From NCBI GenBank assembly GCA_964535315.1, contig CAZHTS010000003.1:1-64000 (forward strand): DNA of 64,000 bases. Reading direction: 5' to 3'. The notes beneath the pieces are model-generated. The model ran no database searches. It had not been told where the DNA came from and was given only the letters and a program-made list of their open reading frames with translations. The translations under genes were made by a program, and so were the position numbers. Origin of the DNA: an uncultured Anaerolineaceae bacterium (GTDB taxonomy: Bacteria; Chloroflexota; Anaerolineae; Anaerolineales; Anaerolineaceae). The number at the start of each line of letters is the position of its first letter. Position 1 is the first letter of the stretch. Shown one piece after another: positions 1-27,859 of the stretch.

Positions 1-54
1 CGCGCTGGTACGGCGAGATCATCGCCAGCAACGGCGCCCGGCTGCACGGGTAAA
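1..54 (+). CDS. 3' end of an unidentified upstream gene (partial; frame ends ...RWYGEIIASNGARLHG*)
   Basis: An open frame runs in from the window edge to a TAA at 52-54; it is too short to assign. Confidence 0.2.
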
Positions 55-60
55 GAACGT

Positions 61-951
61 CTACTCCACCCGCAGCCGGCTGCTGCCCAGTTCGATCACG
101 TCGCCGGGTCGCAGCAGTTGTGCCCCGGCGACACGCCGGCCTTTGACCCACACCCCGCCGGTCGAGCCCAGGTCGCGCACCTGCCAGCCGGCGGTGGTGA
201 GTTCGATCACGGCATGCCGGTGGGATAGCTCCTCATCCACCAGGCACACATCGTTATCGCTGTCGCTGCCGATGGACAGGCTGCCGCGTAAAGGGATGGC
301 GCGCCCATCGTCCAGGTGCAGCGCCCGCGGCGTCTGGACGGTTGAGGCAGGCGGCAAAAATGGTTTAAGCCACCCGCTCACCCCTGCACCGGTTTCCCCA
401 TTGAGAAGCGCCCCGCCGGAGCGCTTCTCGCCCTGCTCTTCGGCGTTCAGCGCGCCGCCGCTTTGAAGACGCAATTTCAGGCGTTGCTCCAGATGCTGGC
501 CCCCGGCGACAAGGATAGCCACCAGTTCCGGGCCGCCCGGTTCCAGGGCGGCATCCGCGGCCGGTGCAAATACCGTTACCGGGATCCATAACGCCCCACG
601 AACAACGTACGGGCCTTGCTGCCGGGTACGCCGGTAGCATAGCCTGACCCACTCGCGGTTCGGGCCCTCAACCCGCAGACTGATCTTCGCCGCCAGAGCA
701 TCCAGCCTGTCCGCAGCTACAAACGGCGGCTGGGCGCTCACGCTGGCGCAGGCAAACACCTCTTTGTCGCCGGGCCGCAGACCGGGATCAGCGGCGTCCG
801 CCCATTTCAAGTGCAGCGCATAAACCCGTCCCCCGGCTTCTCCATGCTTCGCACCCTGGATACGCCAGAAAACCAGCACACCGACCACCACGAGAAGCGC
901 AATCAGCGCCAACACAAGCCCGCCTGCAGCGGATATTCCCTCCCCGTTCAC
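61..951 (-). CDS. FHA domain-containing membrane protein
   Basis: 296-aa ORF with an N-terminal hydrophobic helix (LVLALIALLVVVGVLVFW) and a C-terminal FHA-like region (GSDSDNDVCLVDEELSHRHAVIELTTAGWQVRDLGSTGGVWVKGRRV...GDVIELGSSRLRV). It is transcribed divergently from the HK-caspase cassette. Confidence 0.7.
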   Translation of the reverse strand: MNGEGISAAGGLVLALIALLVVVGVLVFWRIQGAKHGEAGGRVYALHLKWADAADPGLRPGDKEVFACASVSAQPPFVAADRLDALAAKISLRVEGPNREWVRLCYRRTRQQGPYVVRGALWIPVTVFAPAADAALEPGGPELVAILVAGGQHLEQRLKLRLQSGGALNAEEQGEKRSGGALLNGETGAGVSGWLKPFLPPASTVQTPRALHLDDGRAIPLRGSLSIGSDSDNDVCLVDEELSHRHAVIELTTAGWQVRDLGSTGGVWVKGRRVAGAQLLRPGDVIELGSSRLRVE

Positions 952-1283
952 ATGCCCCCCAACACTTCCAACCCAGGTTTATTCCGCTGCGCCCACATCG
1001 CTTCCTCTCAACAAGAACAACTTTTGATTAAGCTTCACTGCACCGATGCGTATGCCGTTCCCCACATATAACAACCAACGAACACGCCTATTATAACCCG
1101 CTTTTGCGCAGATCAGAACCAACCGCCGCCTTCAGGCGGGGTAATGCACACTTTTCCAAAGCGCCGATAGTTTAATATTGTCAAAATTGGAAAAGTGGAG
1201 CACAATCAAGAAACAAACATGAGTCATAGCCAAAACAAAAGGGCAGCACAATCGATTTATCTCCTTATGAAGGGGCGTTTCGG

Positions 1284-3263
1284 ATGCCAGATGAAAAAAA
1301 GATTCGATTGCTGATCGTGGATGACATCGCTGAGACGCGCCACAATGTTCGCACACTGTGCAACTATGCCGCCGGTTATATTGAAGTAATTGGGGAAGCT
1401 CGTACTGGGCGAGAAGCCATAAATAAAGCTTTCGAGACAGAACCCGACGTTATCTTGATGGATATCAACATGCCCGATATGGATGGCCTTACCGCCACCC
1501 AGGTCATCCGTAAACGGCTTAAACATACAGGGGTCGTGGTTTTATCGGTACAATCTGACCCGGATTACATGCGCCGCGCCATGCTGGCCGGGGTCCAGGA
1601 TTTTCTGACAAAACCCCCGATGTACGACGAACTGCTGGATGCCATTCGGCGGGCTAAAGCCATCGTGGAAAGCCAGGCAAGCGCCCTTCAACAGGCCATC
1701 GTCTCAAACAATCAGACCCAAAATGACGAACATCTACATCTAAAAAAACAAGAACTTGAAATCACAATATTTGACCTCACGGCCCGGTTGGAGCTATATC
1801 AACAGAGCCCAATAACCGCCAGCCTGGTCAATGAAATCGAACTGCTCATTTCAGGGTTGGCCCACGATTTGAGAAGCCCCATCAACATTATGCTAGGGAT
1901 TCTTACCACCCTGCCCACAAAAAATGAGAGGAACCAAAAGGACGTGGAGCGCATTTTGCGCCGCTGTTTATATTGCAAATGGATTGCAGATAATTTCTTG
2001 GGGATCAGTATGAGTGAGAAAATGGTGCTTCGCCAGGTCCCCATGCATCAGGCGTTGGATGCAGCCGCCCTCCTTCTGGAAAACCAACTATCCACTTCTA
2101 TCAAAATAGAGAATCAGATCCCCAAAGATGTATCCGTCTACGCAGACGCCAACTTGATTAATATTGTTTTTCTCAATCTACTCACCAATGCTGTCGAAAG
2201 CATGCCTGGCGGCGGGATTATACGCGTAGATACCCTGCAAGAGAAAAACAACATGCTAATTACGATAGAAGATGATGGGGAAATGATCCCGCTGCAACAC
2301 AGAATAAACTTATTCTCGCTTGGTTTTACAACCAAAAAAGCGCACAGTGGAACCGGGTTGTATGTTGCCAGGCGTCTTATGCAACAGCAAGGTGGGGATT
2401 TGATTTACACCCAGTATTCTGAGAAAAAAGTTTTCGGCCTGCTTTTCCCTCTCCAGCCGCCTCCGCCCAAACCAATCGCGGCCCACACCATAGCCGACTT
2501 AGAAGCCTGGAGCATGGCCCTTCGCCAGCGGTTAGAAGAAGCAGCAAAATATGTGCTCACAGAAGAAGAACACCGGGCAATGATCGACGATTTTAAACGT
2601 CTTTCGACCACATTTTCTCAAAATTTGAGCCATGAATTATCTGCTATTGAAGCCCTGACAAAACAAATCACGCTGCGGCTTGCCATTGACGAGAATCAGC
2701 TCACCACGGCCCTCATGAAAGTAAACAAAAATTGTGCTTATTGCCGTCTACTCACCAATAATATTCTGGAAATAGGCGAAGAATCATCTCCCAGGTATTC
2801 AAAAATTTCATTGATCGACGTGGCCGAAACCGTCCTTTCCCTCATTGATCGAAAAATGCCGGAAAATCTATACCGTGTGGAATGGGATGTCGACCCTACA
2901 CTTACGGAAGTCGAAGCTGACGAAGTACAATTGGATCAGGTTTTTATGAATCTGATCCGGAACAGTCTGGATGCCATGCCGCATGGAGGAACCTTAGGTA
3001 TTCAGATCAGCCAGGATCACGAAGAAGCTGTTGTAAAAATATCCGATACGGGAATAGGGATTTCGCCCGATCATCTTCCCCGGCTTTTTCAGCTTGGTTT
3101 TACCACGAAGCCCAAAGGATATGGCATTGGGTTGTATAGTATTCGAAACATCCTGCAAAAACACGGCGGCCAGATACAGGTATTGAGCAAACCAGGGCAA
3201 GGGACAACGTTTGTTTTTCGCCTCCCTATCGTCCAAAAAAAGGTCGAGGTCAAAAATGAATGA
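1284..3263 (+). CDS. Hybrid response-regulator/histidine kinase with an N-terminal receiver (REC) domain and two tandem HisKA-HATPase kinase cores
   Basis: REC signature (LLIVDDIAETR...DVILMDINMPDMDG). Kinase core 1: H-box LAHDLRSPIN, N-box NLLTNAVESMPGGG, G-box GTGLYVARRL. Pro-rich linker (QPPPPKP). Kinase core 2: H-box-like LSHELSAIE, N-box NLIRNSLDAMPHGG, G-boxes DTGIGISPD and GYGIGLYS. RBS AAGGGG lies upstream of the ATG. GC content is visibly lower than in flanking genes. Confidence 0.85.
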   Translation: MPDEKKIRLLIVDDIAETRHNVRTLCNYAAGYIEVIGEARTGREAINKAFETEPDVILMDINMPDMDGLTATQVIRKRLKHTGVVVLSVQSDPDYMRRAMLAGVQDFLTKPPMYDELLDAIRRAKAIVESQASALQQAIVSNNQTQNDEHLHLKKQELEITIFDLTARLELYQQSPITASLVNEIELLISGLAHDLRSPINIMLGILTTLPTKNERNQKDVERILRRCLYCKWIADNFLGISMSEKMVLRQVPMHQALDAAALLLENQLSTSIKIENQIPKDVSVYADANLINIVFLNLLTNAVESMPGGGIIRVDTLQEKNNMLITIEDDGEMIPLQHRINLFSLGFTTKKAHSGTGLYVARRLMQQQGGDLIYTQYSEKKVFGLLFPLQPPPPKPIAAHTIADLEAWSMALRQRLEEAAKYVLTEEEHRAMIDDFKRLSTTFSQNLSHELSAIEALTKQITLRLAIDENQLTTALMKVNKNCAYCRLLTNNILEIGEESSPRYSKISLIDVAETVLSLIDRKMPENLYRVEWDVDPTLTEVEADEVQLDQVFMNLIRNSLDAMPHGGTLGIQISQDHEEAVVKISDTGIGISPDHLPRLFQLGFTTKPKGYGIGLYSIRNILQKHGGQIQVLSKPGQGTTFVFRLPIVQKKVEVKNE

Positions 3264-5499
3264 CGCTATTCGTATCCTGATCGTTGAAGATGACTCGGAT
3301 TGGCTGGACATTTATAGTGAATACTTGAGAGACGAAAAATACGAAATTGATACCGCCCGAACCATTCAACAGGCTTTTGAACGCTTAGACAGAGCAATCT
3401 ACGATGTGGTCATTACCGATTTAAAGATGATCGGGTTTGATTACGACTTTGGCGGCTTCAGCGTGCTTAAAAGAGTTCGCGAAATAAGTTCCTGCACGCA
3501 AGTCATCGTCATTACGGCCTATGGTACACAAGAAATCGCATTTCGGGCTACTCAGCAAGGAGCCTTTGATATCGTGTACAAACCCCCCGACCCTGACCGC
3601 CTGCGGGTAAGTGTAAGAGGCGCGATACAGGCCAGTCAGATGCTTGCGACTCGTCGCGGTGATACAGCGCGCCTGTCTCGCCATGCCAGAGTGCCTGCTC
3701 AAAATGCAGCCGAAAACACCCCAGGACTGGGGCTCTTTGGCATCACCGGTAACAGCCGGCAGATGCAAACCACTTTTGAAAAAATCAGCTACGCCGTTCA
3801 TACCGACGCCCCTGTTTTTTTATACGGAGAAACAGGCACCGGGAAGAACCTGATTGCAAAAGCCATCCACCATAATTCCAAACGACAATCTCGCCCTTTC
3901 TCTTCTGTGGCGTTTGCTGATCTTGTGGAGCATTGGAATGCCATTCAGCGCAACCTGTTGCGGATAAAAGGCGGCACCTTCTTCCTGGATTCTTTACAGA
4001 AACCAGGCCCAGGAGCAAGCGCCATCCTGGAAGACCTTTTTACACTTTTGCCCAACGTAGATGTACGCCTGATTTCCACGGTCACTACAGAAGAAAACAC
4101 GCTGGAAAAAATCCGCATCCAATTCGGTTTCGATGCCAATCTGTTTGAGAGGCTTTCACAAACCCCAATTTACATCCCCCCTTTGCGGCTTCGAAAAGAC
4201 GGCGACGACATACCCGCCTTGATCGGCTTTTTTATCCGCACGATCACGGCTGAGCGCTCATCCGAACCACAAATAACCTTTTCAAAAGAGGCGTTAAAAA
4301 AGCTGGTTGATTATGATTATCGTTTGGGAAATGTCAGGGAACTCTATGACATCATTCACAAAGCCGTGAACCTGCTGGGGGCCGAGGGGGAAATTACGCC
4401 TGACCAGCTACCCGCTACGCTGCACCAACGAGAAATGATTGAAGTAAAAGCTGGCCCGGCTCCGGCATCCATTTATACCTTAACCGTTGGCATCGACCAG
4501 TATTTCTTCTTAAACAGGCTGCGTAAGGCTGCTCAGGACGCACAAGACTTTCACGATTTATTGTTGCAAAGCCGGGTGGACAGGCAAAATGCGCTGATGT
4601 TGTTAGATGATCAGGCGACAAAGACGAACATCCTGAATGCTTTATCACAGCTTGCCAGATCGGTAACAGAAAACGATAAGGTTATCATTTTCTTTTCGGG
4701 ACATGGTGTGCAATTACAGGACCTCACCAAAGAAGAATATCTATGCCCGGTTGACACGAATTTTGCCGATCTGGAGAACACACTTATCTCCAGTAAAGAA
4801 TTGACCCGGGCATTTAATGCCATCCACGCCGGCCAGTTCATATGTATTTTTGACGCCTGCCATGCAGGCGGCGTAGGCGAAATCAAACACGCAGGCCTGG
4901 CCATTAAGGATGGGGTCTCCGAGAATTCTTACACACTGTTATCACAGGGCAAGGGTAGAGTGATCCTCGCCTCCAGTTTACCCGACGAGGTTTCCTGGGA
5001 AATCGACACAATGCGCAATGGGTTGTTTACCAATTTTCTGCTCGAAGGATTGAGAGGGAAGGCCGCCCGACAGAATGGCGAGGTGTGGTTGAGCGCTCTG
5101 TTCGGATATGTATCCGAACAAATCCCCAGGCATAGACCACAGCACCCCTATCTCAAATCCGAGACTCAGGACATCGTCATCCTGACAGGCGCCACGCCAA
5201 AAGATACGCGTCACATCCTACAACCTGATCGCGACAATCTTTCTTACAATCTGGCGGCGGTGCGAAATTTGCTCAACAGGGTCTTCAGCGACGAAGGATT
5301 AATTCACTTCTGCCACGACCATTTCCCAATCGTATACGATGATCTGGGCTCAGGAATGAGTAAAGCGACGAAAATTGAATATTTGTTAGACTATTGCGAA
5401 CGCACAATCGAAATCGAAAAGATGTTAAAACTGGTACAGAAGATGAACCCACAACAATATTCGTTTTTTGAAGATCAGCTCCGCAGCCCCACCCCCTGA
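3256..5499 (+). CDS. Receiver (REC) domain - NtrC-type AAA+ (sigma54-interaction-like, GAFTGA-less) - caspase/C14 peptidase - C-terminal EAD-like helical domain fusion protein
   Basis: The start is taken at the ATG at 3256 (MNDAIRILIVEDD; RBS AAGGTCGAGG upstream; ATGAATGA overlaps the stop of the upstream HK), not the ORF-track 3211. REC: phospho-acceptor D in VVITDLKM. AAA+: Walker A LYGETGTGKNLIAKAIHHNS, Walker B GGTFFLDSL, arginine-finger region PPLRLRKDGDDI, GNVRELYDIIHKA; no GAFTGA motif and no C-terminal HTH. Caspase: YTLTVGIDQY...VIIFFSGHGVQ (His) ... ICIFDACHAGG (Cys). C-terminal LLNRVFSDEGLIHFCHDHF...KIEYLLDYCERTIEIEKMLKLVQKMNP resembles the EAD/death-like helical modules of conflict systems. 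Confidence 0.85.
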   Translation: MNDAIRILIVEDDSDWLDIYSEYLRDEKYEIDTARTIQQAFERLDRAIYDVVITDLKMIGFDYDFGGFSVLKRVREISSCTQVIVITAYGTQEIAFRATQQGAFDIVYKPPDPDRLRVSVRGAIQASQMLATRRGDTARLSRHARVPAQNAAENTPGLGLFGITGNSRQMQTTFEKISYAVHTDAPVFLYGETGTGKNLIAKAIHHNSKRQSRPFSSVAFADLVEHWNAIQRNLLRIKGGTFFLDSLQKPGPGASAILEDLFTLLPNVDVRLISTVTTEENTLEKIRIQFGFDANLFERLSQTPIYIPPLRLRKDGDDIPALIGFFIRTITAERSSEPQITFSKEALKKLVDYDYRLGNVRELYDIIHKAVNLLGAEGEITPDQLPATLHQREMIEVKAGPAPASIYTLTVGIDQYFFLNRLRKAAQDAQDFHDLLLQSRVDRQNALMLLDDQATKTNILNALSQLARSVTENDKVIIFFSGHGVQLQDLTKEEYLCPVDTNFADLENTLISSKELTRAFNAIHAGQFICIFDACHAGGVGEIKHAGLAIKDGVSENSYTLLSQGKGRVILASSLPDEVSWEIDTMRNGLFTNFLLEGLRGKAARQNGEVWLSALFGYVSEQIPRHRPQHPYLKSETQDIVILTGATPKDTRHILQPDRDNLSYNLAAVRNLLNRVFSDEGLIHFCHDHFPIVYDDLGSGMSKATKIEYLLDYCERTIEIEKMLKLVQKMNPQQYSFFEDQLRSPTP

Positions 5500-5705
5500 A
5501 ACCAGTCCCGTTTTCTTTGGTCCCTGCCAGTAACGCGTCTCGCGCGATAGCATACAAGCGCCCCAACCTGCGCTAAATTCTGTCACATCCGTCTACCGGT
5601 GGAACGTCGGCTTTGGTTTCGTCAAATTTCCATCTACGCGCTTTTGTACCCTGGCGTCTTTGCGTTAAGCCTTGAACCAACAGCGCCCATCCTGCCGCCG
5701 GCCCA

Positions 5706-5742
5706 GGCCACACAGGTCTCGGGGCCCTGTGTGGCCTTTTGC
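5706..5742 (+). terminator. Rho-independent terminator downstream of the HK-caspase operon
   Basis: Perfect 11-bp stem GGCCACACAGG / CCTGTGTGGCC with a 9-nt loop, followed by TTTTGC. Confidence 0.5.
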
Positions 5743-5763
5743 AGTTCGGATCTCCAGCGGGGT

Positions 5764-6294
5764 TTACCAGCCGTTCCAGTGAACCTTCTCCGGCTTCCAC
5801 TTATCTTTGGCCGGTTCCGCCCCTGCCGGACGGCCAAGGGGGATGACGCTGAGCGGAACGATCGAGTCGGGCAAATTCAAAATAGCCCGAACAGTTCCCA
5901 CCCGCCCGGCGTCGGGCAGGACGGCCGTCCACACCGCACCCCACCCCAACGCTTCGGCTGCCAGCAAAATGTTTTCGGTGGCGGCCGAGCAATCCATCAC
6001 CCACAACAAGCCATTGCCATCGTCAGGCATCTGGCGGCCGGTGTCGCCGCACACCACAATGGCAGCCGGGGCATGCAGCAGCATCTTGGCGTATGGCAAT
6101 TCGCTTCCCAGGCGCTGTAACACCTCGGGCTGGTTGACAACCACAAAGGCCCAGGGTTGCAGATTGACCGCCGACGGCGCAGCCATCCCGGCGCGTACGA
6201 TGCGTTCCAGGTCGGCGTCGGGGACCGGTTCGGCGGTGTACTTGCGGACGCTCTTACGGTTCATGATCAGTGACAAATCGTTCATGTTTCTCAT
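5764..6294 (-). CDS. Nitroreductase family protein (NAD(P)H-flavin oxidoreductase-like)
   Basis: MNDLSLIMNRKSVRKYT...PSAVNLQPWAFVVV is the typical nitroreductase N-terminus. The start is probably at MRNMND (RBS AAGGATGAG) rather than the ORF-track 6333. Confidence 0.8.
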   Translation of the reverse strand: MRNMNDLSLIMNRKSVRKYTAEPVPDADLERIVRAGMAAPSAVNLQPWAFVVVNQPEVLQRLGSELPYAKMLLHAPAAIVVCGDTGRQMPDDGNGLLWVMDCSAATENILLAAEALGWGAVWTAVLPDAGRVGTVRAILNLPDSIVPLSVIPLGRPAGAEPAKDKWKPEKVHWNGW

Positions 6295-6351
6295 CCTTTG
6301 CTGCAAAATAGATTTTGTTGTTTGTACACACAAGCTTGCAGTTAAAAAAAT

Positions 6352-6786
6352 TCAACCCTCTGCGATGATCTGATTGGCGCGATCGATCTCGGCCGTCAGG
6401 TGATCGGCGAAATCCCGCCCCAACACGGCGACAAAACGTTCGTGCAACGCCGCCCACGCCTGGCGCAAGAGCGGCTGCAATTCCAGGCCCTTTTGCGTCG
6501 GGTACACTTTAGATACCTTCCCCACCAGTTCGCGCCGCAGCAATTGCCGCTCAACCAGCTTGTCGATAAAACGCGTGACGGTTGAAGGCGCCAGATTCAT
6601 ACACGTCGCGATCTCATTCTGATTGATGCCGGGCGTTTCGTTAACAAGCATCTGGACAAAAGCATAAGAAGGAGCCAGCCCGGTGACCATAAAGGCTTCA
6701 TCCGCCATCTTGCTGACCGAACGAGCCAGCGAATTGGCGGTGAAATACAGACAGGCATTAAGGTGAGAATCACATTGGGGTGCCAT
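6352..6786 (-). CDS. MarR family transcriptional regulator
   Basis: Winged-HTH signature (...INQNEIATCMNLAPSTVTRFIDKLVERQLLRRE...). Start chosen at MAPQCD with RBS AAGGAAGG; the ORF-track N-extension lacks an RBS. Confidence 0.75.
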   Translation of the reverse strand: MAPQCDSHLNACLYFTANSLARSVSKMADEAFMVTGLAPSYAFVQMLVNETPGINQNEIATCMNLAPSTVTRFIDKLVERQLLRRELVGKVSKVYPTQKGLELQPLLRQAWAALHERFVAVLGRDFADHLTAEIDRANQIIAEG

Positions 6787-6978
6787 TGCGCCTTCCTTAC
6801 AATTGTTTGCACATACAATTATAAGCCAGACAGGATTGTTGTCAAGAGTTTCTGCCTCCACCACTCTCTTCTTAAGCGTTAGGAAGGGTTTAAAAAAGGT
6901 GTCAATAGAGATTGACAATTCACACGATCCGGGTATAGACTTAGTGCGGTTGTTTTTTATTCACAGAATAGGAGAACC

Positions 6979-8814
6979 ATGAACACCACCATTTTTGTAG
7001 CGGTTATCGTGATCGGCCTGTTGATTCTGACGCTGGTCCTGATACCCGGTTTGCTCGGCCTGGTTATCATCAGCGAACGCCAGGTCGGCGTCGTCGTCAA
7101 GAAATTCTCAACCGGCAAGCCCCTTGCCCCAGGACGCCTGGTGGCGTTGGACGGCGAAGCCGGTTACCAGGCCGATACCCTCACCCCGGGCTGGCACTTT
7201 TTCATGTGGCCGTGGCAGTACGTCGTCCACAAGGTGCCCGTTATCGTCATCCCGCAGGGCGAGATTGGCCTGATCGTGGCCGCCGACGGCGACCCCATCC
7301 CGGCCGAACGCATCCTCGGCCGGGCGGTCGAGTGTGACAACTTCCAGGACGCCCGCAAGTTCTTGCTCCACCACGGCGAAAAAGGCCGCCAGATGAGCAT
7401 CCTCACCGCCGGCACCTATCGTATCAATACCGCATTGTTTAACGTCATCATGACTGCCAATGCCAACGCTCAGGGGATGTCGCCCGAACAGCTCAAAGTC
7501 TATCGCGTCGAGCCCGACCGGGTCGGCATCGTCACCCTCATGGACGGCGCCCCGATCGACACCGGCGAAATCGCCGGCCCGATCATCGAAGGCCACGACA
7601 ATTTCCAGAAAGGCCAGCTCTTCCTGGATCACGGCGGGCGGCGCGGTTTGCAGGAACAAATCCTGCTCTCCGGCTCGTGGAACCTCAACCCCTGGTTCGT
7701 CCAGGTCGAGCAGGTACCCATGACCGAAATCCCCATCGGTTACGTCGGTGTGGTCATCTCCTACGTCGGGAAAGCGCACGAAGACGTCAGCGGCGTGGAT
7801 TTCAAACACGGCGATCTGGTCAAAGAAGGCCATAAGGGTGTGTGGGTCACCCCGCTCTACCCCGGCAAGCACCCGATCAACACCCGCATCATGGAGGTCG
7901 AACTGATCCCGACCACCAACATCGTGCTCAACTGGGCCAACCGCACCGAATCGCACCAGTACGACGCCAAGCTCTCCTCCATCACCGTGCGCTCCAAAGA
8001 CGGTTTTGCCTTCAACCTGGACGTGGCCCAGATCATCCACGTCGGCGCCCTGGACGCCCCCAAGGTCATCTCGCGCGTCGGCTCGATGCAAAACCTGGTC
8101 GACCACGTCCTGCAACCCATCGTCGGCAACTACTTCCGCAACGCCGCCCAGACCAACACCGTGTTGGACTTCCTCAGCGCCCGCAGCGAGCGCCAGGCCG
8201 AAGCCGCCGAACACATCCGCCGGGCGCTCAATGCCTACGACGTACAGGCCATCGACACCCTCATCGGCGACATCAACCCGCCCGAAGACCTGATGCAGAC
8301 CCTCACCGACCGCAAGATCGCCGAGGAACAGCGCAAGACCTTCGAGACCCAGGAAGCCGCCCAAAAGCAGCGCCAGCAGTTGGTGCGTGAAACGGCCAAC
8401 GCCGACATCCAGGGCGAAATGGTGCGCTCTGAACAGGGCGTGCGCATCGCCGAACTTCAGGCCAACGCCCAGATCAAACAGGCCACCGGTGAAGCCGAGT
8501 CCATGCGTCTGCGCGCCTCGGCCGACTCGGACTCGATCCGCCTGCGCGCCACCGGCGAGTCCGAAGCCATCCGCATGACGGGTGAGGCTCGCGCCGGCGC
8601 CTACCAGGCCGGTGTGAAAGCGGTGGGCTCCGAAAACTACACCGCCATCCAGCTCATCCAGGCCATCGGGGAACGCAACGTGCGTATCATCCCCGAGATC
8701 CTCGTCAACGGCGCCGGCGCCAACGCCGGTCTGGCCGACGGATTGATCGCCCTCATCTTGCGCAACCAGATGCTGGACAAGAACCCGCCCACCACGGACA
8801 AACCACAGGCATAA
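6979..8814 (+). CDS. SPFH/band-7 family protein, flotillin-like (YqiK-type) with a long C-terminal coiled coil
   Basis: N-terminal TM helix, SPFH core, then an extended E/A/Q/R-rich coiled coil (EEQRKTFETQEAAQKQRQQLVRETANADIQGEM...) typical of bacterial flotillins. RBS AGGAGA lies upstream of the ATG. Confidence 0.85.
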   Translation: MNTTIFVAVIVIGLLILTLVLIPGLLGLVIISERQVGVVVKKFSTGKPLAPGRLVALDGEAGYQADTLTPGWHFFMWPWQYVVHKVPVIVIPQGEIGLIVAADGDPIPAERILGRAVECDNFQDARKFLLHHGEKGRQMSILTAGTYRINTALFNVIMTANANAQGMSPEQLKVYRVEPDRVGIVTLMDGAPIDTGEIAGPIIEGHDNFQKGQLFLDHGGRRGLQEQILLSGSWNLNPWFVQVEQVPMTEIPIGYVGVVISYVGKAHEDVSGVDFKHGDLVKEGHKGVWVTPLYPGKHPINTRIMEVELIPTTNIVLNWANRTESHQYDAKLSSITVRSKDGFAFNLDVAQIIHVGALDAPKVISRVGSMQNLVDHVLQPIVGNYFRNAAQTNTVLDFLSARSERQAEAAEHIRRALNAYDVQAIDTLIGDINPPEDLMQTLTDRKIAEEQRKTFETQEAAQKQRQQLVRETANADIQGEMVRSEQGVRIAELQANAQIKQATGEAESMRLRASADSDSIRLRATGESEAIRMTGEARAGAYQAGVKAVGSENYTAIQLIQAIGERNVRIIPEILVNGAGANAGLADGLIALILRNQMLDKNPPTTDKPQA

Positions 8815-8839
8815 ACCCTGTCTGATAGACAGAATGAAA

Positions 8840-8878
8840 CCTGGCGCCGCATTTCTGGGCGCCAGGTTTTTTATTTTT
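8840..8878 (+). terminator. Rho-independent terminator after the flotillin gene
   Basis: Stem CCTGGCGCC / GGCGCCAGG with a 9-nt loop, followed by TTTTTTATTTTT. Confidence 0.6.
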
Positions 8879-9122
8879 CCATCCGCCTGAGCCCGAATTC
8901 AAATCACACAAACCGGTATTTAAACGCTCACCCACGCCAGTTCCTGTGGAATAAGAGTTGTGTGGAGGCTGTTTTACCATCCAGGTGATAGAATTGAAGC
9001 ATTCCACCAGTGGCACTCCATGGGCCGCAGTCACAAAAAGCCCACCCCCTAAAACCTTTTGTGCCCTTTACAAATGCCTTTTGCTGGCTCGTCAGAATTG
9101 CAACCCATGATTTAGAGGCGAT

Positions 9123-12100
9123 ATGACTCACAAATGGATATCCGGCCTGTTGATGGCTGCTCTGCAACTTCAGCCCTTCCTGTCGCAACCTTCAACCGCC
9201 AACCCGGCAAACGCGTCCCCAATGCACGCCAGCCTGCCTGCTGCCAGTGCAGATTGGACATTCAATATTAACAATCAGGGCGTAGGACGCAACATTATAA
9301 CCGCCGATATAAATGGCGACGGCTTCTCGGATGCGATTGTAGGCGCGAATGAGTACAGCAACTATCGCGGGGCGGTTTACGGATTCTACGGCTCGGCAAA
9401 CGGGCTGAACGCCACCCCTGACTGGTCGCTAGAGGGCGAAAATTCGTACGACTCCTTTGGGGCAGCCCTGGCCAACGCCGGCGATGTCAACGGCGACGGT
9501 TATGCCGACCTGCTCGTCGGCGCCGGCAACTACCCCGGCGGCACGACCTACACCGGCAAGGTCTATCTGTATTACGGTTCTGCCAGCGGACCGGAGCATT
9601 CCCCCGCCTGGGAAAAAACAGGGGAAGATGAAGGCTCGCGCCTGGGCTCTGCGCTGAGCGGCGTCGGCGACCTTAACGCCGATGGTTTTGGCGATGTGAT
9701 CATCGGCGCACCGGGATACGGTGGCTCATTATGGCATGGCCGCGCCTATACCTACCTCGGTTCCGCAGATGGCCTGCCGGCCAACGCCAGCCAGGTGTTG
9801 ACCGGCACGGCGCAAAACGAAATGGTCGGCAATATCGTCGCCCGCGCCGGAGACGTCAACGCCGACGGATTTGCCGACGTCGTCCTCTCCACCAGCAGCC
9901 AGGCGTATACCCGCAAAACACTCCTGTATCAAGGCGGCCCAGACGGGCTGGACGAAACGCCGGCCTGGACAATCACCAATGAACAGGCCGGCTACATGAC
10001 CCCGTCGGGGGCCGGTGATCTCAACGGGGACGGCTATGCCGACATCGCCGTGGTTGCCGAAACCAGCGCACAGGTCTATTTCGGCGCTGCCGGTGGGCCG
10101 CCAACCTCCCCGGGCTGGACGGTTGCCATCGCCAATAATCATTGTCAGATCCCAGGTGGCAATGGCGACGTCAATGGCGATGGCTACGCCGACCTGGCGA
10201 TCAGCGACCGCTGTTATACCCAGGGTGAAACCTACGAAGGCACGGTCGCACTTTACCTGGGTTCATCCGGCGGACTCGCCAGCACTGCCGCCTGGACGGC
10301 CGAGGGCAATCACACCCACATGCAAATGGGCGCCTCTATCAATATCTCAGGAGATATCAACGGCGACGGTTACTCAGATATTTTGACCGGCGCCTACGAC
10401 TTCAATTTTTCAACCACACCGGTTTTGCAAGAAGGCAAAATTTTTGCTTTTCACGGCGCCCCTGATTTTCTCGCCGCTCAGGCTGACTGGAGCGTAGGAG
10501 GCGGGCAGACCTCTGCTCACCTGGGACAGAGCGTCAGTCAGGCTGGTGATGTCAACGGTGACGGTTTTGACGACGTCCTGATCGCTGCTCCCACTTTTGA
10601 CAACGAGCAAGCAGATGAGGGCCGGGTATACCTGTATGCTGGCTCAGCATCAGGGTTGAATGCTGCCCCGGCCTGGAGTGGCGAAGGCAACCAGCCCGGC
10701 GCACAATACGGCAGTGCCGTCAACGCTGCCGGCGATGTAAACGGCGATGGGTTTGCAGACGTTGCCATCGGCGCCCCTTATTTCGATCATGGCCAGGACG
10801 ATGAGGGGGTAGCGGTGGTATACGCTGGCTCGGCGACGGGTTTACAGTCCAGCCCGCTCTGGAGCGTCGAAGGAGATCAGGCCGCTTCTCATCTGGGTAG
10901 TTCACTGGCCTCCGCAGGCGACGTCAACGGGGATGGCTTCGCCGATTTAGTGGTCGGCGCACCCGGCTACAATAATGTCGGACAGGCGCGCCTGTACCTG
11001 GGCGCTGAAACCGGCCTGAGCGCCGTTCCAACCTGGACGGCCAACGGTGTGCAGACCGGTGAAGCGTTTGGTTCTTCAGTCGGCAGCGCTGGCGACGTCA
11101 ACGGCGACGGTTTTGCCGATGTCCTGATCGGCGCCGCGCAGGCCAGCAACGGCGAAAACACCGAGGGCAAAGCGCTGCTCTATCTGGGCTCGGCCGCGGG
11201 CCTCAGCGCCACGCCGGCCTGGACAGTGGAAGGCAATCTGGCTGGCGCTGGCTGCGGTGCGGCGGTCGGCAGCGCCGGAGACGTCAACGGCGACGGCTTT
11301 GCCGATCTACTCATCGGCTGTCCGGGGTATAGCAACGAGCAGACCAACGAGGGACGCGTCTACATTTACTCCGGCTCCAGCGGGGGCCCCGGCAGCCTCT
11401 CATTCAATACCATCGAAATCAACCAGGAAAATGCCTGTTTCGGCATATCGGTATCCACCGCCGGGGATGTCAACGGAGATGGCCTGAGCGAAATTGTGAT
11501 CGGTGCACACCGCTTTAGCAGCGGTCAGACAAACGAGGGGGCCGCGTTCCTTTACCGGGCCCAGGGCAGCCCTGTCTGGGGACTGGCCAGCGACCAGGAT
11601 AACGCCTTCCAGGGTGTGTCGGTCAGCAGTGCGGGCGACGTCAACGGTGATGGATACAATGACGTCATCATTGGCGCCAGCGGTTACACGGCCGGTCAGA
11701 GCGAGGAAGGGCGCGCAACGGTCTATTACGGCAACGCCAGGCCCGGCCTGCCGCTTGCGCTGCGCATGTACCAGCCCGATCGCACCCCCTTGCCCCTCTA
11801 CGGGGTATCCACCAGCCCCGACTCGCTGCAACTATCCTTCCTGGGGCGCAGCCCATGGGGCCGCAGCAAGGCCAGGCTCGAATGGGAAATCAAGCCGGCC
11901 GGCGTTCCCCTGGATGCCGCCGGCCTGGAAAGCACCCCAACCTTCGTGGACACGGGTCTCAACGAATATCTTTTCGAGCCCCTGCTCTCCGGTCTGAGCA
12001 AGAACACGGCATATCACTGGCGTGTTCGCCTGTGGTACGATCCCATTACCACCCCCGGCCAGCCCCACAGCCGCTGGTTCAGCCCCCCTCAAAACGGATG

Positions 12101-12509
12101 GGCGCAGCCCGATTTCCGTACTGCGGACCTACCAATAGAACTCGAATTCGATCAGGCTGCTTATACCTCCACAGAAAGTAGCGGCGCAGTTACTATCCGG
12201 GTGCAGATCAGCAAACCCCCAGAACAAGACGTGCACATTCAATACCACACTGAAGATGGAAGCGCCCTGGCTGGCAACGATTATGCCGCCGCCAGCGGAA
12301 CATTGACTTTCGTTGCCGGTGCGACGGCCAGTCAGGCTATTTCCATTCAAATCATTCGTGATTTTGAGCATGAGACGGACGAAACGTTCACCCTGGTGTT
12401 GAGTGGTATCACCCCGTCAGGCGCCGCCCGTGTCGCCGGCACCAACCCCGTCCAGATCACCCTCACCGACAGCCCACAGACCATCTACCTGCCATTTAAC
12501 CTGCGTTGA
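9123..12509 (+). CDS. Secreted FG-GAP (integrin-alpha-like) repeat protein with a C-terminal Calx-beta domain
   Basis: Signal-peptide-like N-terminus. At least 14 repeats of the ...GDVNGDGFADV/L..G.P... FG-GAP calcium-binding motif. The C-terminus (IELEFDQAAYTSTESSGAVTIRVQIS...YHTEDGSALAGNDYAAASGTLTFVAGATASQAISIQIIRDFEHETDETFTLVLSG) matches Calx-beta. Confidence 0.85.
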   Translation: MTHKWISGLLMAALQLQPFLSQPSTANPANASPMHASLPAASADWTFNINNQGVGRNIITADINGDGFSDAIVGANEYSNYRGAVYGFYGSANGLNATPDWSLEGENSYDSFGAALANAGDVNGDGYADLLVGAGNYPGGTTYTGKVYLYYGSASGPEHSPAWEKTGEDEGSRLGSALSGVGDLNADGFGDVIIGAPGYGGSLWHGRAYTYLGSADGLPANASQVLTGTAQNEMVGNIVARAGDVNADGFADVVLSTSSQAYTRKTLLYQGGPDGLDETPAWTITNEQAGYMTPSGAGDLNGDGYADIAVVAETSAQVYFGAAGGPPTSPGWTVAIANNHCQIPGGNGDVNGDGYADLAISDRCYTQGETYEGTVALYLGSSGGLASTAAWTAEGNHTHMQMGASINISGDINGDGYSDILTGAYDFNFSTTPVLQEGKIFAFHGAPDFLAAQADWSVGGGQTSAHLGQSVSQAGDVNGDGFDDVLIAAPTFDNEQADEGRVYLYAGSASGLNAAPAWSGEGNQPGAQYGSAVNAAGDVNGDGFADVAIGAPYFDHGQDDEGVAVVYAGSATGLQSSPLWSVEGDQAASHLGSSLASAGDVNGDGFADLVVGAPGYNNVGQARLYLGAETGLSAVPTWTANGVQTGEAFGSSVGSAGDVNGDGFADVLIGAAQASNGENTEGKALLYLGSAAGLSATPAWTVEGNLAGAGCGAAVGSAGDVNGDGFADLLIGCPGYSNEQTNEGRVYIYSGSSGGPGSLSFNTIEINQENACFGISVSTAGDVNGDGLSEIVIGAHRFSSGQTNEGAAFLYRAQGSPVWGLASDQDNAFQGVSVSSAGDVNGDGYNDVIIGASGYTAGQSEEGRATVYYGNARPGLPLALRMYQPDRTPLPLYGVSTSPDSLQLSFLGRSPWGRSKARLEWEIKPAGVPLDAAGLESTPTFVDTGLNEYLFEPLLSGLSKNTAYHWRVRLWYDPITTPGQPHSRWFSPPQNGWAQPDFRTADLPIELEFDQAAYTSTESSGAVTIRVQISKPPEQDVHIQYHTEDGSALAGNDYAAASGTLTFVAGATASQAISIQIIRDFEHETDETFTLVLSGITPSGAARVAGTNPVQITLTDSPQTIYLPFNLR
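9280..11520 (+). repeat. Intragenic tandem DNA repeats (~190-200 bp period) encoding the FG-GAP modules
   Basis: Recurrent near-identical cores such as gacgtcaacggcgacggttttgccgat / gatgtcaacggcgacgg at a regular spacing throughout the gene. Confidence 0.6.
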
Positions 12510-12721
12510 GCGTAACAGCCACCACACAAGCCTAAAAATGGCCGCCGGAAGGTTTCTTTCCCGGCGACCGTCAAACGCCTCCACAACCGGCCGATTTTCC
12601 TTCGTAAACCGGGAACGAACCATCGATCATTTCCGTCTATAAAATAGAACCAGGCTGTTTCTGGTTCCATCCGGCGCCCATTCGGATACAATAAAGATAT
12701 ATGGAGAAGGAGGGTCCAGCC

Positions 12722-15700
12722 ATGAGCAATCAACCTCAACGCACAAACACTCGCTTACCAGTTCTCGCCCTGTTACTGGTATTGTTCATCTGCCTTATTG
12801 TGGCAGGTGGTGCAGCCTATTTCTTGCTACGCAACCGCATGTCGCTGCCATTCTCGCCCACCGGCACGCAGCAGATTCCGGTCAACCTTTTACCTGCCAA
12901 TAATACTGGAGGTGCAGTTGTGACGCAAACCGTCGAAAGTGGCGCTCCGCTTCAGTTGAGCGAAGGCCAGGCCCAGCCTGAAACGGTCCAACGGCTGCCG
13001 GTCGCCACCGGTGAGCCGCTCAGCCAGGCACAGGTCGATCAAATTCTGGCGCGCCTGCCAACCCTGGTCCCGCAGCCCGGCCAGCAGACCGACTTCAAGC
13101 TGGCGCAGCAGCCCATCCCCCCGCCGCGGCCGGGGACAACGGTGCAGGGCGCTTTTCCTCCCCCCACACAGCCCCCACCCCCCGACCCGGCCAGCGCCGG
13201 CCCCTTACAGGTGCTGCGCTTTGCCCCCGAAGGGGAAATCCCCACTGCCCCTTTTATTTCGGTCACCTTCAACCAGCCGATGGTGCCGCTCACGACTCTG
13301 GCAGACCTGTCCGCCCGCGACGTTCCCGTGCGCGTTGAACCGCCCCTGGAAGGCACCTGGCGCTGGATCGGCGTCAAAACGCTGACTTTTGAATACGACT
13401 CGGCGCTGATCGACCGCCTGCCCAAGGCCACCGAATATCACATTTCGGTGCCGGCCGGCACACGCTCGCAGACCGGCGGTGTACTGGCAGAAACGGTCGA
13501 ATGGAAATTTACCACCCCGCCGCCCAGGGTTGTCGCCACCTATCCGCCCGACAGCCCGCAGCCTTTGAAGCCGCTGTTCTTCATTCAATTTGACCAGCGC
13601 ATCGACCCGGCCGCCGTACTGAAAACCATCCAGGTCAACGCCGGCGGGCAGCCCGTCGCCCTTCAACTGGCCGGTGAAGAAGAAACCCAGGTCGACAAGG
13701 GCGTCAGCCGCATGATCAAAAACGCCGCCGCCGGGCGCTGGCTGGCCTTCCGCGCCGTCCAGCCCCTCCCTGCCGATACCGGCATCGCCGTCACCATCGG
13801 GCCCGGCACCCCTTCAGCCGAAGGCCCTCTGCTCACTAAAGAAGCACAGACCTACGGTTTTCGCACCTACGCCCCGCTGCGCATCGAAAGCCACGGCTGC
13901 TCCTGGACGGACGAGAACACCTGCCGGCCACTCTCACCCTTCTATATTCGTTTTAACAACAATATCGATGTCTCCTCTTATGCCGAGAGCATGCTGCACA
14001 TTGCCCCTGAACTGGCCGGCGTCTCGGCCAATATCTACGGCAACACCATCACCATTAAAGGCGCCACCCAGGGGCAGACCACCTACACCGTCGATCTGAG
14101 CGGCAAAATCAAAGACGTTTTTGGGCAGGAATTAGGACAGGATGCCCGCCTGACCTTCCAGGTTGGCAAGGCCGAAGCGGTGCTATTTGGCCCCAAACAG
14201 GGCTTTGTCACCATTGACCCCTTTGCCGGCAAACCGCAGTTCTCGGTCTACACTATTAACTACACGAAGTTAAACGTGCAGATTTACGCCGTACAGCCCA
14301 GCGACTGGCCAGCTTACAAACAATACCTGCGCGATTTCCAGCGCAATGATGTCAAAACGACCCCGCCCGGCCGCCGGGTATTCAATAAAGCCATCAACAT
14401 CGAAGCCGAGAGCGACGCCCTGATCGAAACCGGCATCGATCTGAGCCCCTACATGGACGGCAGTTTCGGGCACTTTGTCGTCATCGTCGAACCGCCTACC
14501 GGCTGGTTCCAGCAAAAAGAGTACTGGCGCACGGTACAATCCTGGGTGCAGATCACGCAGGTTGGCCTGGACGCTTTCGTCGATCACAGCGACATGGTCG
14601 TATGGGCCACCTCCCTTAAAGATGGCGCCCCGTTGAGCGGCATCGACATCGCCGCCGAAACATCCGGCAAACAGGCCGCCACCGGCAGCGACGGTCTCGC
14701 CCGCTTTGCCATCCCCAACAACGCCTCATACCTGGTAGCCAGCAGCGGCGCCGATAAGGCCCTGCTGCCACGCTCCACCGCTTTCTGGAGCGACGAAACC
14801 TGGGCCGCCCGACCGGTGCTCGATACACTGCGCTGGTACGTTTTCGACGACCGCCAGATGTACCGCCCTGGTGAAGAGATCCACATCAAGGGCTGGATGC
14901 GCCGCATCGGCGGCAAACAAAACGGCGACGTTGGCCCATCCACCGGTATTACCGCCGTCAACTATCGCATCACCGAACCGCAGGGCAACGAAATCGGCAC
15001 CGGGCGCGCCGAAGTCAACGCCCTGGGCGGCTTCGACTTTGCCTTCACCCTGCCCGAGGCCGTCAACCTGGGCAACGCCAGCATCTATATCTACGGCGAA
15101 GGCAATCTGGGCAACCTGGAAGGCAACCAGTATTACCACAGCTTCCAGATCCAGGAATTCCGCCGGCCAGAGTTTGAGGTCAAGGCCAGCAACGAGACGC
15201 CCGGCCCGTACTTCGCCGGCGATCATACCAACGCCCTGGTCGAAGCCAGATACTATGCCGGCGGCCCGCTGCCGGGCGCCGAGGTCAGTTGGCAGGTAAC
15301 CACCGCACCGGGCAGCTACACACCGCCCAACTGGTCTGATTTTACCTTTGGCACCTGGCAGCCCTGGTGGTTCTACGGGTGGGGCGATGGCGGATCAAGC
15401 GAAGGCGGCCAGACCGAAACGTTTAACGGACGCACCGACGCTGCCGGTGTGCACCGCCTGCGCCTGGATTTCAACCAGAACCTTGGCCCGCGGCCGCTCA
15501 GCGTGGTGGCGTCGGCCGCCGTCATGGACGTCAACCGCCAGGCCTGGGGCGCCACCACCACCCTGCTGGTCCATCCCGCCAGCCTGTACGTGGGCATGCG
15601 CAGCGAACGCTATTTCGTCGAACGCGGCACACCGCTCGAGATCGACCTGATCGTCACCAACCTGGACGGTAAGCCGGTGATCGACCGCCCGATCAAAGTG

Positions 15701-26748: not shown

Positions 26749-27859
26749 CGTTACTCCTCCCGCGCCCATAGATCGCCTGGGCGGCAACCACAGCCTGCTC
26801 AAAAACTGTCACCATACGCTCGATATTGATCTCTTCGGCCACAATGCGGTACGAAACCTCCCCCATTTGACGCAAACGGGGTGCGTTTTGCAAGGCCTCC
26901 TGCAACGTGGCAATCAAATCATCCAGACTGCCCGGCGCAAGCTGCCAGCCGTTTTCGGGGCGTACCAGGTTGCTCTGGGTGCCGTCGGCTTCAGCCACCA
27001 CTACCGGCAGGCCAAAAGACATGGCCTGCTGCACCGCCAGCCCACCTGTCCCCGGCAAGACGAACAGATCCGCCCGGCGGAAGCAGGTTTCAAGTTCGGC
27101 GCCGTGCCGCGCCCCAGGGAATTCACAGCGCGGGTATATCTGGCGCGCCAGTTCCTCCAGACCGGGTCGGGCCGGGCCGTCTCCTACGACACACAAACGC
27201 GGCTGGCGCTCAACCGGCAAGGCAGCGCACGCTCGCAGTAATAGATCGACCCGTTTCCGTTCCTGTAAACGGCCGACAAACAGCAGCGACGGCCCCTGCG
27301 GATCAAAATCGGCGCCGCGCTCTGGCAGCGGGTGCGCCGGCCGCGGCGTCACCGCATTCGGCGCCACAAAGATACGCTGCGCCTCAAAACCGGCCGCCTG
27401 ATATTCCTGCGCCCCCTGCTGGCTGTAAGTCAACAACACATCAAACTGTCCTAAAAACTTCCGGCGCACACCCGCCAGGACGCCCCCGCGCGCCGGCGCC
27501 CCCAACCCCCAGCCCACCACCGGGCGTCGGCGACCGTGCATCCACCGCACCGCTTGCGGCGTACTGAGATAACGCGGGTTGGCTTCTACAATCAACACGT
27601 CCGGCTGCCAGCGCTCTAGCCACGCCACCAGCCCGGACTGCCAGCACACATACCCTCGCCCAGACAACCAGTGATGATTACCGGCCAACGTCCATTGCGC
27701 CCGGCTCAGGTGAGCCTGTTCGCCCAGGGCCTCTTCTGGCCGCGGCGCCCCGGCAAACACCCCCAGGCCACCCTGGCAGGCCTGCGCCAGGGCGTCAAAA
27801 AAAGCCGCCCGGTAAGCCGGCAAGACGCGTTGTTGCAAACCCAGCCGCGTCGCAATCAT
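26726..27859 (-). CDS. Glycosyltransferase family 4 (GT-B fold)
   Basis: ...VLPGTGGLAVQQAMSFGLPVVVAEADG... EX7E-like region. The ATG overlaps the sbcC stop by 4 nt (ATGA). Confidence 0.75.
   Translation of the reverse strand: MIATRLGLQQRVLPAYRAAFFDALAQACQGGLGVFAGAPRPEEALGEQAHLSRAQWTLAGNHHWLSGRGYVCWQSGLVAWLERWQPDVLIVEANPRYLSTPQAVRWMHGRRRPVVGWGLGAPARGGVLAGVRRKFLGQFDVLLTYSQQGAQEYQAAGFEAQRIFVAPNAVTPRPAHPLPERGADFDPQGPSLLFVGRLQERKRVDLLLRACAALPVERQPRLCVVGDGPARPGLEELARQIYPRCEFPGARHGAELETCFRRADLFVLPGTGGLAVQQAMSFGLPVVVAEADGTQSNLVRPENGWQLAPGSLDDLIATLQEALQNAPRLRQMGEVSYRIVAEEINIERMVTVFEQAVVAAQAIYGRGRSNDAHHDGG

Follow-up and report, generated by a model that had tools for sequence, protein, structure and literature searches.

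The described systems that lie closest to the locus analysed here are Detocs, which comprises a kinase (DtcA), a free receiver (DtcB) proposed to buffer leaky phosphorylation and a receiver-effector (DtcC) (Rousset et al., 2023; 10.1101/2023.01.24.525353), and the conflict systems of Kaur et al., in which an NTPase chassis carries interchangeable caspase, TIR or CHAT domains together with EAD7 or bDLD1 adaptors (PMC7159879; PMC8195603). The locus is a two-gene cassette near the start of a 64,000-nucleotide stretch of DNA from an uncultured Anaerolineaceae bacterium (contig CAZHTS010000003.1, positions 1 to 64,000), referred to below as the window. Its first gene encodes a histidine kinase (HK), and its second a response-regulator effector in which a receiver (REC), a degenerate NtrC-type AAA+ module (AAA*) with its lid, a caspase domain and an EAD7 tail follow one another in a single polypeptide. 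The cassette combines Detocs-like wiring with the NTPase, EAD and effector logic of Kaur et al., and represents a new chassis and a new wiring for this known conflict-system logic.

The likeness to Detocs lies in a predicted His-Asp phosphotransfer that is wired to an exchangeable cell-killing effector instead of a DNA-binding domain, in an extra receiver, which is free in Detocs and in a sister clade of the present family but fused to the kinase in the window clade, and in operons of two or three genes, with the sister clade having the DtcB/DtcA/DtcC topology. In Detocs, however, no AAA+ domain separates the receiver from the effector, most effectors are PNP ATP nucleosidases and the kinase carries TPR sensors. 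The kinase of the window clade, by contrast, contains a pair of HK cores but lacks a sensor domain, and its partner proteins end in caspase, TIR, CHAT or death-like adaptor domains. The window cassette has two genes where Detocs has three, the extra receiver being part of the kinase, and no PADLOC Detocs or Dtc model matched a window protein at E ≤ 0.1, the presence of these models in PADLOC-DB 2.0.0 not having been checked. A previous interpretation of the effector, made without database searches (the sequence-only reading), had proposed a conflict logic wired to a phosphorelay; comparative evidence from the relatives supports this proposal, but such wiring is not without precedent, Detocs being already two-component-wired. 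Ambrosia links a two-component system to restriction-modification genes via a winged helix-turn-helix regulator.

The systems of Kaur et al. resemble the cassette in placing the same effectors and adaptors on an NTPase chassis, in a phyletic bias towards filamentous bacteria, and in the sharing of an adaptor between the core and a separately encoded effector, for which locus L008 (below) is the counterpart here. Their chassis are STAND NTPases, MoxR-vWA, GAP1-type GTPases and others, whereas here it is the degenerate AAA+ of a bacterial enhancer-binding protein (bEBP); NtrC-like AAA+ proteins occur once in the main text of PMC7159879, as an analogy in the introduction, and do not occur in that of PMC8195603. 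Receivers in those systems were reported to be independent of histidine kinases (PMC7159879; PMC8195603), in contrast to the dedicated kinase that is always present here. With bEBPs (NtrC, NtrC1 and LuxO, and the GAFTGA-less NtrX and VpsR) the effector shares the order REC, AAA+ and lid, the receiver and Walker A, but it has no HTH_8, GAFTGA, L2 or Walker B Glu, it ends in a protease and an adaptor, and its NCBIfam scores are 4–5 fold under the family cutoffs. The apoptosome and the MALT1-CBM complex likewise bring together a caspase-fold protease, a death-fold adaptor and a nucleotide-binding oligomerisation module; this is an analogy of logic only, the AAA+ here being of NtrC lineage and not STAND/AP-ATPase, and the trigger being a predicted phosphorylation. 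Full-text literature searches found no description of a REC and NtrC-type AAA+ fused to a caspase, TIR, CHAT or EAD domain, which agrees with the sequence-only reading, in which the architecture was thought to be undescribed.

The effector protein and its degenerate AAA+ module

The open reading frame (ORF) holding the effector gene is 3211..5499 on the + strand. The ATG at 3256 is, on the alignment, the true start, because the orthologues begin there, sharing an N-terminal M-x-x-x-x-(I/L)L(I/L)VEDD, and because it shares an overlap of 8 nucleotides with the end of the preceding kinase gene, stop codon included (ATGAATGA). Pfam recovered in this ORF all four parts that the sequence-only reading had proposed, namely a receiver, an NtrC-type AAA+ core, a C14 caspase and a tail, each in the proposed position (Table 1). 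The receiver has the phospho-acceptor Asp expected of it, as evidenced by Asp12, Asp13, Asp55 (3418–3420), Thr87 and Lys109, which make up the acidic pocket, the phospho-acceptor and the conserved Thr/Ser and Lys; these residues are invariant in the clade and intact in 45/45 family members. The receiver also contains a clade-specific insertion of 4 amino acids (aa) (GFDYDFGGF, after DLKM). The linker between REC and AAA* (3631–3741, residues 126–162) has a GC content of 0.61 inside a gene that is otherwise at 0.46–0.49, is weakly conserved and was modelled as disordered (pLDDT ~30).

The AAA+ core was examined by aligning clade members with six canonical NtrC proteins as controls. Sigma54_activat matched residues 163–242 (3.9e-15), covering only positions 1–78 of the 168 in the model, and Sigma54_activ_2 matched residues 165–310 (6.9e-16; both Pfam). 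Walker A, GETGTGK, is present where it had been reported (G191–K197, with Lys197 at 3844–3846) and, as G-E-x-G-T-G-K, is the only one of the AAA+ motifs to be invariant in the clade. The absence of GAFTGA, which the sequence-only reading had also noted, was upheld, since the L1/GAFTGA loop has been removed by a deletion of ~17 residues, leaving VEHWNAIQRNLLRI in its place, and GAFTGA occurs in 0/45 effector-fused relatives compared with G(A/S)FTGA in 6/6 canonical controls. This account of the degeneration was, however, incomplete, as the L2 loop, the Walker B Glu and sensor I are lost as well. The pre-sensor-I insertion (L2) is gone through a deletion of ~10 residues relative to the canonical REIIPVGGTEPIKV. 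The Walker B motif reported as FLDSL is present (FFLDS), but Ser stands in place of the catalytic Glu; the Walker-B DE is absent from all 45 effector-fused relatives, whereas the six canonical NtrC proteins all have both DE and GAFTGA. Sensor I has Thr for Asn in the window protein. The arginine fingers had been listed as present, yet the canonical FRxDLYYRL reads FDANLFERL, so that only the second Arg survives, and orthologues have K, Q or none at that position. The window protein has the sensor II Arg, a residue that varies across the clade, the sequence PPLRxRKDGDDIP is invariant in the clade, and the lid and inter-subunit surface are well conserved.

Because the Walker B Glu, sensor I, one Arg finger and both loops have been lost, the AAA+ module is almost certainly not an active ATPase, and the ring assembly envisaged in the sequence-only reading would therefore have to be a binding or scaffold function. 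Foldseek matched the AlphaFold2 (AF2) model of the chassis to NtrX, NtrC1, NtrC4 and LuxO (fold matches 5m7p, 1ny5, 3dzd and 5ep0). Judged by its motifs, the chassis is a REC-AAA+ of the NtrC lineage in which the switch and the P-loop are retained but the motor and the surface for sigma54 are gone.

No helix-turn-helix (HTH; HTH_8) was found in the effector by Pfam at E ≤ 0.1, and the C-terminus consists of Peptidase_C14 and EAD7, in line with the earlier claim that a caspase replaces the Fis-type HTH. The NCBIfam regulator models (NtrX, LuxO and NtrC) score at most one quarter of their cutoffs, the best being NtrX with 146.6 bits against 600. The effector thus has none of the marks of an enhancer-binding protein that were looked for (GAFTGA, L2, a competent AAA+, HTH_8 and a score above the NCBIfam cutoff). 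Such proteins are currently annotated in genomes as 'DNA-binding NtrC family response regulator', a label that is wrong.

The catalytic residues of the caspase domain are His483 (4702–4704, in FFSGHG) and Cys535 (4858–4860, in FDACHAGG; motif D533-A-C535-H). Residues 400–747 retrieved 766 homologues, and both members of the dyad, which had already been described as intact, are invariant in a 50-sequence alignment. The AF2 model built from this alignment (pLDDT 87.8) confirmed the caspase fold, with PDB matches by Foldseek at E values of 1e-12 to 1e-9, of which the MALT1 paracaspase was the best (1.4e-12); further matches were Arabidopsis metacaspase 9, Geobacter GSU0716 and yeast Yca1. The nearest solved relative by sequence is also Yca1 (4f6o, 1.3e-6), with both motifs aligned. 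The predicted fold and the His-Cys dyad within SGHG and DxCH(S/A)G place the domain among the clan CD caspases/metacaspases. A metacaspase-type D-x-C-H goes with Arg/Lys rather than Asp specificity, and the motif suggests that the window caspase would likewise cleave after Arg/Lys, not Asp. MALT1 is a death-domain-bearing paracaspase that is activated by oligomerisation. Assignment to the EACC1-associated caspases (NF047832) was rejected, with a score of 84.6 bits against a cutoff of 140 and no adjacent EACC1 gene.

The helical tail noticed by the sequence-only reading proved to be a true EAD7 (Table 1). It is predicted to form a six-helix bundle (pLDDT ~90–97; AF2 helices 267–343 of the segment), which agrees with the description of EAD7 as an all-alpha, death-like domain (Kaur et al.; PMC7159879). 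In the AF2 model of the full-length effector (pLDDT 74, pTM 0.47) the individual domains are good and the inter-domain geometry is unusable.

Partner kinase and setting of the cassette

The kinase has no sensor or transmembrane domain recognisable by Pfam or in the orthologue alignment. Its orthologues are REC-HK-HK proteins of ~650 aa that are 40–47% identical to the product of 1284..3263, and in them His194 of DHp1 and the CA2 domain are conserved while the G1 box of CA1 has decayed. The corresponding residue of DHp2, which precedes CA2, is His in the window kinase and N or R in 4/6 orthologues. The decay of the CA1 G1 box and the frequent replacement of the DHp2 His together suggest a division of labour, in which CA2 would phosphorylate His194 of DHp1. 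The kinase-fused receiver may act as a phosphate sink or buffer, or else as an input. A REC-HK-HK gene lies directly upstream of the effector gene, and overlaps it, at all tight-clade loci with enough flank (the window, L001, L003, L004, L006, L090, L091, L092, L093–L100, L115, L116 and L118), which, for these loci, answers in the affirmative the question, raised with the sequence-only reading, of whether a dual-core kinase always accompanies such effectors. A large hybrid sensor kinase of 1480 aa (CHASE4-GAF-GAF-HisKA-HATPase-REC) is encoded elsewhere in the window (35836–40278, - strand); it could conceivably feed from upstream into the cassette kinase, which lacks a sensor, but nothing connects the two.

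The cassette lies in a low-GC island, with a GC content of 0.48 compared with 0.59 in the remaining window, and GC at third codon positions (GC3) is 0.51–0.54 for the cassette genes and 0.68–0.84 for neighbouring genes. No direct or inverted repeats flank the island, the sole repeats being internal, between the two HK cores, and a promoter and terminator scan of 900–5900 gave counts no higher than shuffled sequences and was uninformative. The operon has only its two genes and is followed by a nitroreductase gene on the opposite strand. No relatives were found in IMG/VR viral contigs, nor did any plasmid record cover ≥80% of the effector protein, the plasmid matches being ordinary NtrC regulators aligned to the REC and AAA parts.

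The neighbours of the cassette in the window are housekeeping genes, encoding an FHA protein, the nitroreductase, a MarR protein and a band-7 protein. The FHA-domain protein (61–951, - strand), immediately upstream of the cassette, has an N-terminal transmembrane segment. Elsewhere in the window are an FG-GAP/Calx-beta repeat protein of 1128 aa adjoining a bacterial alpha-2-macroglobulin of 2043 aa with MG2, bait region, A2M and bMG10 (together 9123–18832, + strand), an SbcC/Rad50-like ATPase with a zinc hook (27856–30417, - strand) and a 742-aa protein with a terminal sortase domain (58267–60495, - strand).

Table 1. Features of the two-gene cassette, in window coordinates.
Feature	Position	Strand	Basis or remark
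Low-GC island holding the cassette	1000..5550	not assigned	500-nucleotide GC profile, borders approximate
Two-gene cassette	1284-5499	+	kinase gene, then response-regulator effector gene
Partner kinase, 659 aa, REC - DHp1 - CA1 - DHp2 - CA2	1284..3263	+	Pfam, orthologue alignment
Kinase N-terminal REC	1311..1649	+	Pfam 8.4e-26; D13, D14, D60, K110 invariant
DHp1/HisKA, invariant phospho-acceptor His194 (1863-1865, AHDLRSP)	1842..2012	+	Pfam, alignment
CA1, first HATPase domain, degenerate G1 box (EDDGEMIP)	2157..2423	+	Pfam, alignment
CA2, second HATPase domain, canonical N, G1, F and G2 boxes	2919..3230	+	Pfam, alignment
Effector gene, 747 aa, REC - linker - AAA* - lid - caspase - EAD7	3256..5499	+	ORF list, Pfam, alignment
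Receiver domain, residues 7-120	3274..3615	+	Pfam Response_reg 1.6e-21, alignment
Degenerate sigma54-type AAA+ core, residues 163-310	3742..4185	+	Pfam, alignment, AF2 and Foldseek
AAA+ lid, residues 316-393, sensor II motif GNVRE	4201..4434	+	Pfam AAA_lid_14 4.7e-14, alignment
Caspase/metacaspase-like domain (Peptidase_C14), residues 409-635	4480..5160	+	Pfam 1.2e-22, AF2, Foldseek
EAD7, residues 669-732	5260..5451	+	Pfam PF19960 1.8e-10, 40.9 bits vs cutoff 32

Relatives, C-terminal exchange and defence context

An exhaustive profile search over 1.84 billion cluster representatives (50% identity), which agreed with the first homologue search, found a tight clade with both loops deleted that has 7 representatives, each with at least 573 bits. 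About a dozen looser relatives score below this clade, and ordinary NtrC regulators start near 250 bits. Across 185,579 species genomes, true members are confined to metagenome-assembled genomes (MAGs) of Anaerolineae/Chloroflexota, including Ca. Leptofilum. Besides the window protein, two others have the exact REC-AAA*-caspase-EAD7 architecture, P0002 (58% identity) and P0003 (45%), which makes three in all. The same chassis is, depending on the relative, joined to caspase-EAD7 (P0001–3), TIR_2 (~540 aa; P0004–12, 14, 18 and 20), CHAT (P0015, P0017 and P0121), EAD7 alone (~475 aa; P0016, 19 and 21–24) or bDLD1 (P0013).

In a sister clade (P0025–31 and P0126–130) both loops are present, GAFTGA has decayed to forms such as GAFYGV, GALHGA and GTIYSA, and Walker B reads DS or DG; judged by these motifs, it looks like an intermediate stage. 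Its C-termini are TIR, EAD7 or bDLD1, and its genes are laid out as [REC][HK][REC-AAA*-X-EAD7], three genes in all (L101–L113; e.g., L108 264–3418 and L113 6666–9926), with a free receiver of ~140–170 aa and a short kinase of ~270 aa. The domain of ~170 aa between the lid and EAD7 in this clade has no Pfam match. A third, more distant branch (L009 5536–9683; L010 and L011) is laid out as a stand-alone TIR gene followed by genes for REC-HK-HK and REC-AAA; in L009 the last of these has DAFPGA replacing GAFTGA, DR at Walker B and an unannotated C-terminal domain of ~150 aa.

At two loci, L008 (7980–10922) and L109 (7162–10139), the caspase is encoded by a gene of its own, directly after the REC-AAA* gene. 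In L008 the C-terminal tail of this caspase and that of the REC-AAA* protein are 43% identical over 58 aa (pairwise E 1e-11), and this shared tail, which is coiled-coil-like (...AEF(V/I)D.R..PPDL.RA...) and not matched by EAD7, may be an undescribed adaptor. L008 is thus a trans version of the EAD-coupling principle, of which the window protein is the covalently fused form. REC-caspase(-EAD7) proteins without AAA+ also occur (L013 2707–4254, L119 4580–6127, L089 8001–9527 and P0273) and, on domain content, constitute with their kinases a simpler two-component caspase system. These AAA-less proteins adjoin cyclase-GAF or GAF histidine kinases, and their hosts are Anaerolineales and a cyanobacterial plasmid-like contig with ParA/ParB, TrbI and an integrase nearby.

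The genes around several relatives belong to defence systems. In three different Anaerolineae metagenome loci, L001 (caspase-EAD7), L004 (TIR) and L091 (TIR), the module is flanked by DrmMI and DrmA of a class-1 DISARM operon (loci extents 1–17958, 1–17632 and 1–17629, respectively). For L001 and L004 the operon was identified by PADLOC (DrmMI E=0 and DrmA ~1e-302, plus DrmB and DrmC), and for L091 from Pfam and gene order. Other cargo at this junction comprises VapBC and a small transmembrane protein in L001, small uncharacterised ORFs in L004 and two STAND/nSTAND NTPases in L091, and the DrmMI-DrmA junction has the appearance of a hotspot where defence cargo is inserted. No Drm genes are present in the window; since it lacks them, and since insertion occurs alongside VapBC and STAND NTPases, the module is cargo of DISARM and not one of its core genes. 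Elsewhere, genes for an integrase and for a restriction-endonuclease-like protein adjoin the module in L090, and a NACHT-FGE-sulfatase gene does so in L003.

Stand-alone caspase-EAD7 cassettes, which are the closest relatives of residues 400–747, adjoin TIR-EAD7, EAD7-X, AbiEi/AbiEii and BrxL genes. In L087 (5224–9056) and L088 (3700–13500), TIR-EAD7, caspase-EAD7 and EAD7 joined to an uncharacterised 350-aa domain are clustered, next to AbiEi/AbiEii, BrxL-like ATPases and a Pol-beta nucleotidyltransferase, and each TIR-EAD7 gene in these clusters is preceded by an unannotated 453-aa protein.

Interpretation of the cassette

From the domains and motifs, the conserved operon, the swapping of effectors, the defence context and the compositional island, we infer that the cassette is a horizontally acquired two-gene conflict module, probably for abortive infection or programmed death, with a platform-activated caspase; a probability of about 0.58 is given to this explanation. 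Horizontal transfer is suggested by the lower GC and GC3 of the cassette. The kinase would autophosphorylate on His194 and serve as phosphodonor for Asp55 in the effector, while its own fused receiver (Asp60), probably as a phosphate sink, would compete for phosphate and so set a threshold. Phosphorylation of the effector receiver would release or promote oligomerisation of the NtrC-derived AAA* module, which, having kept Walker A, may still bind nucleotide, with neither hydrolysis nor contact with sigma54. The oligomer would be a platform that brings caspase domains together, activating them by proximity, and EAD7 would either recruit EAD7-tagged effectors encoded elsewhere or cross-link platforms into higher-order assemblies, the outcome being proteolytic cell death or arrest. 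The gating of the caspase by receiver and AAA+ that the sequence-only reading had put forward thus gains support from the swapping on the chassis, the kinase and the DISARM context, but not in the form of an active ATPase, which the module almost certainly is not.

Several observations weigh against this explanation. The proposed oligomerisation involves a AAA+ module that is loop-less, with a degenerate Arg finger and sensor II, and its nearest match among solved structures, NtrX, is not known to work as a classical hexameric activator. The AF2 model of the full-length protein is of moderate confidence and silent on assembly, and AAA* would not be strictly needed for coupling receiver to caspase, since REC-caspase-EAD7 proteins without it exist (P0273 and L013). 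Searches by phmmer and with a custom EAD7 hidden Markov model, run on six-frame translations of the window and of five homologous loci (L001–L006, within 8 kb), matched only the queries and revealed no further EAD7 protein. The kinase has no recognisable sensor domain, and the surroundings of the cassette in both the window and L006 are housekeeping genes, not defence genes.

This housekeeping context also speaks for a developmental or stress-induced death or signalling protease of filamentous Chloroflexota, responding to an endogenous cue (nutrient stress, filament damage or differentiation) and not to phage, and cleaving specific host substrates, possibly without killing, as in the roles of HetF and orthocaspases in cyanobacteria. 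A kinase whose only input is a receiver suggests a position downstream of another cellular kinase, for which a large CHASE4-GAF hybrid kinase is at hand in the window, and the limitation of the family to filamentous Anaerolineae MAGs fits with those passages of Kaur et al. that link a multicellular habit to such systems. The exchange of TIR, CHAT, caspase and death-like adaptors between close relatives, the repeated insertion inside DISARM, the compositional island and the patchy, rare distribution are, however, typical of defence cargo and not of a conserved developmental pathway, and the developmental explanation is therefore considered unlikely. Slightly less likely still is that AAA* acts as a nucleotide sensor or allosteric latch, taking ATP or another nucleotide as a second input and forming an AND gate with phosphorylation, and that activation takes place in dimers and not on a platform. 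The strict conservation of Walker A while the hydrolysis residues drift would be explained in this way, REC-caspase-EAD7 proteins do without AAA+ and would likewise be activated as dimers, and the closest solved structures include NtrX, LuxO and VpsR, whose AAA+ acts in regulation and not as a motor. Set against a latch are the well-conserved lid and inter-subunit surface, with its invariant PPLRxRKDGDDIP, and the general need of TIR and caspase/CHAT effectors for higher-order assembly. Death-like adaptors also point to multimeric signalosomes (PMC8195603).

The two remaining explanations founder on the motifs and domains. A AAA+ and a protease in one chain call to mind an ATP-driven machine of the Lon/FtsH kind, in which the AAA+ would unfold substrates for the caspase, but the module lacks the L1 and L2 pore loops along with the Walker B Glu, sensor I and one Arg finger, and paralogues place non-protease domains (TIR, EAD7 and bDLD1) on the same chassis; the unfoldase-protease was rejected on this motif evidence and is regarded as highly improbable. 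An atypical sigma70-dependent regulator of the NtrX/VpsR type, or a decaying pseudogene of one, is the most improbable of all. The best NCBIfam and PDB matches are indeed NtrX-type regulators that likewise have no GAFTGA, yet the NCBIfam scores are far under the cutoffs (146 against 600), and a transcription factor, canonical or NtrX-like, was rejected because the protein has no HTH. Decay is contradicted by an intact protein with 45–58% identity in three orthologues and an invariant catalytic dyad and receiver residues.

If the cassette is indeed a phosphorylation-switched conflict module, it would join two-component-wired defence, as in Detocs, and signalosomes of NTPases and death-like adaptors, which have so far been described apart. 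The sigma54-activator AAA+ fold, stripped of its motor and sigma54 contacts, would have been reused as an assembly platform. The cassette may tentatively, and at slightly less than even odds, be regarded as the founding example of an unrecognised class of immune or death signalosomes. In these, a dead NtrC-type AAA+ ring, switched by phosphotransfer from its own dual-core kinase with an inbuilt receiver as buffer, would form a scaffold resembling the apoptosome on which caspase, CHAT or TIR effectors and death-fold adaptors act. Enhancer-binding proteins would in that case have passed at least once from the control of transcription to the signalling of cell suicide. Bacteria would then use a phosphorelay to gate induced-proximity caspase activation, for which the cassette offers a compact two-gene test system, and which bears on the origin of caspase and death-fold signalling in multicellular bacteria.

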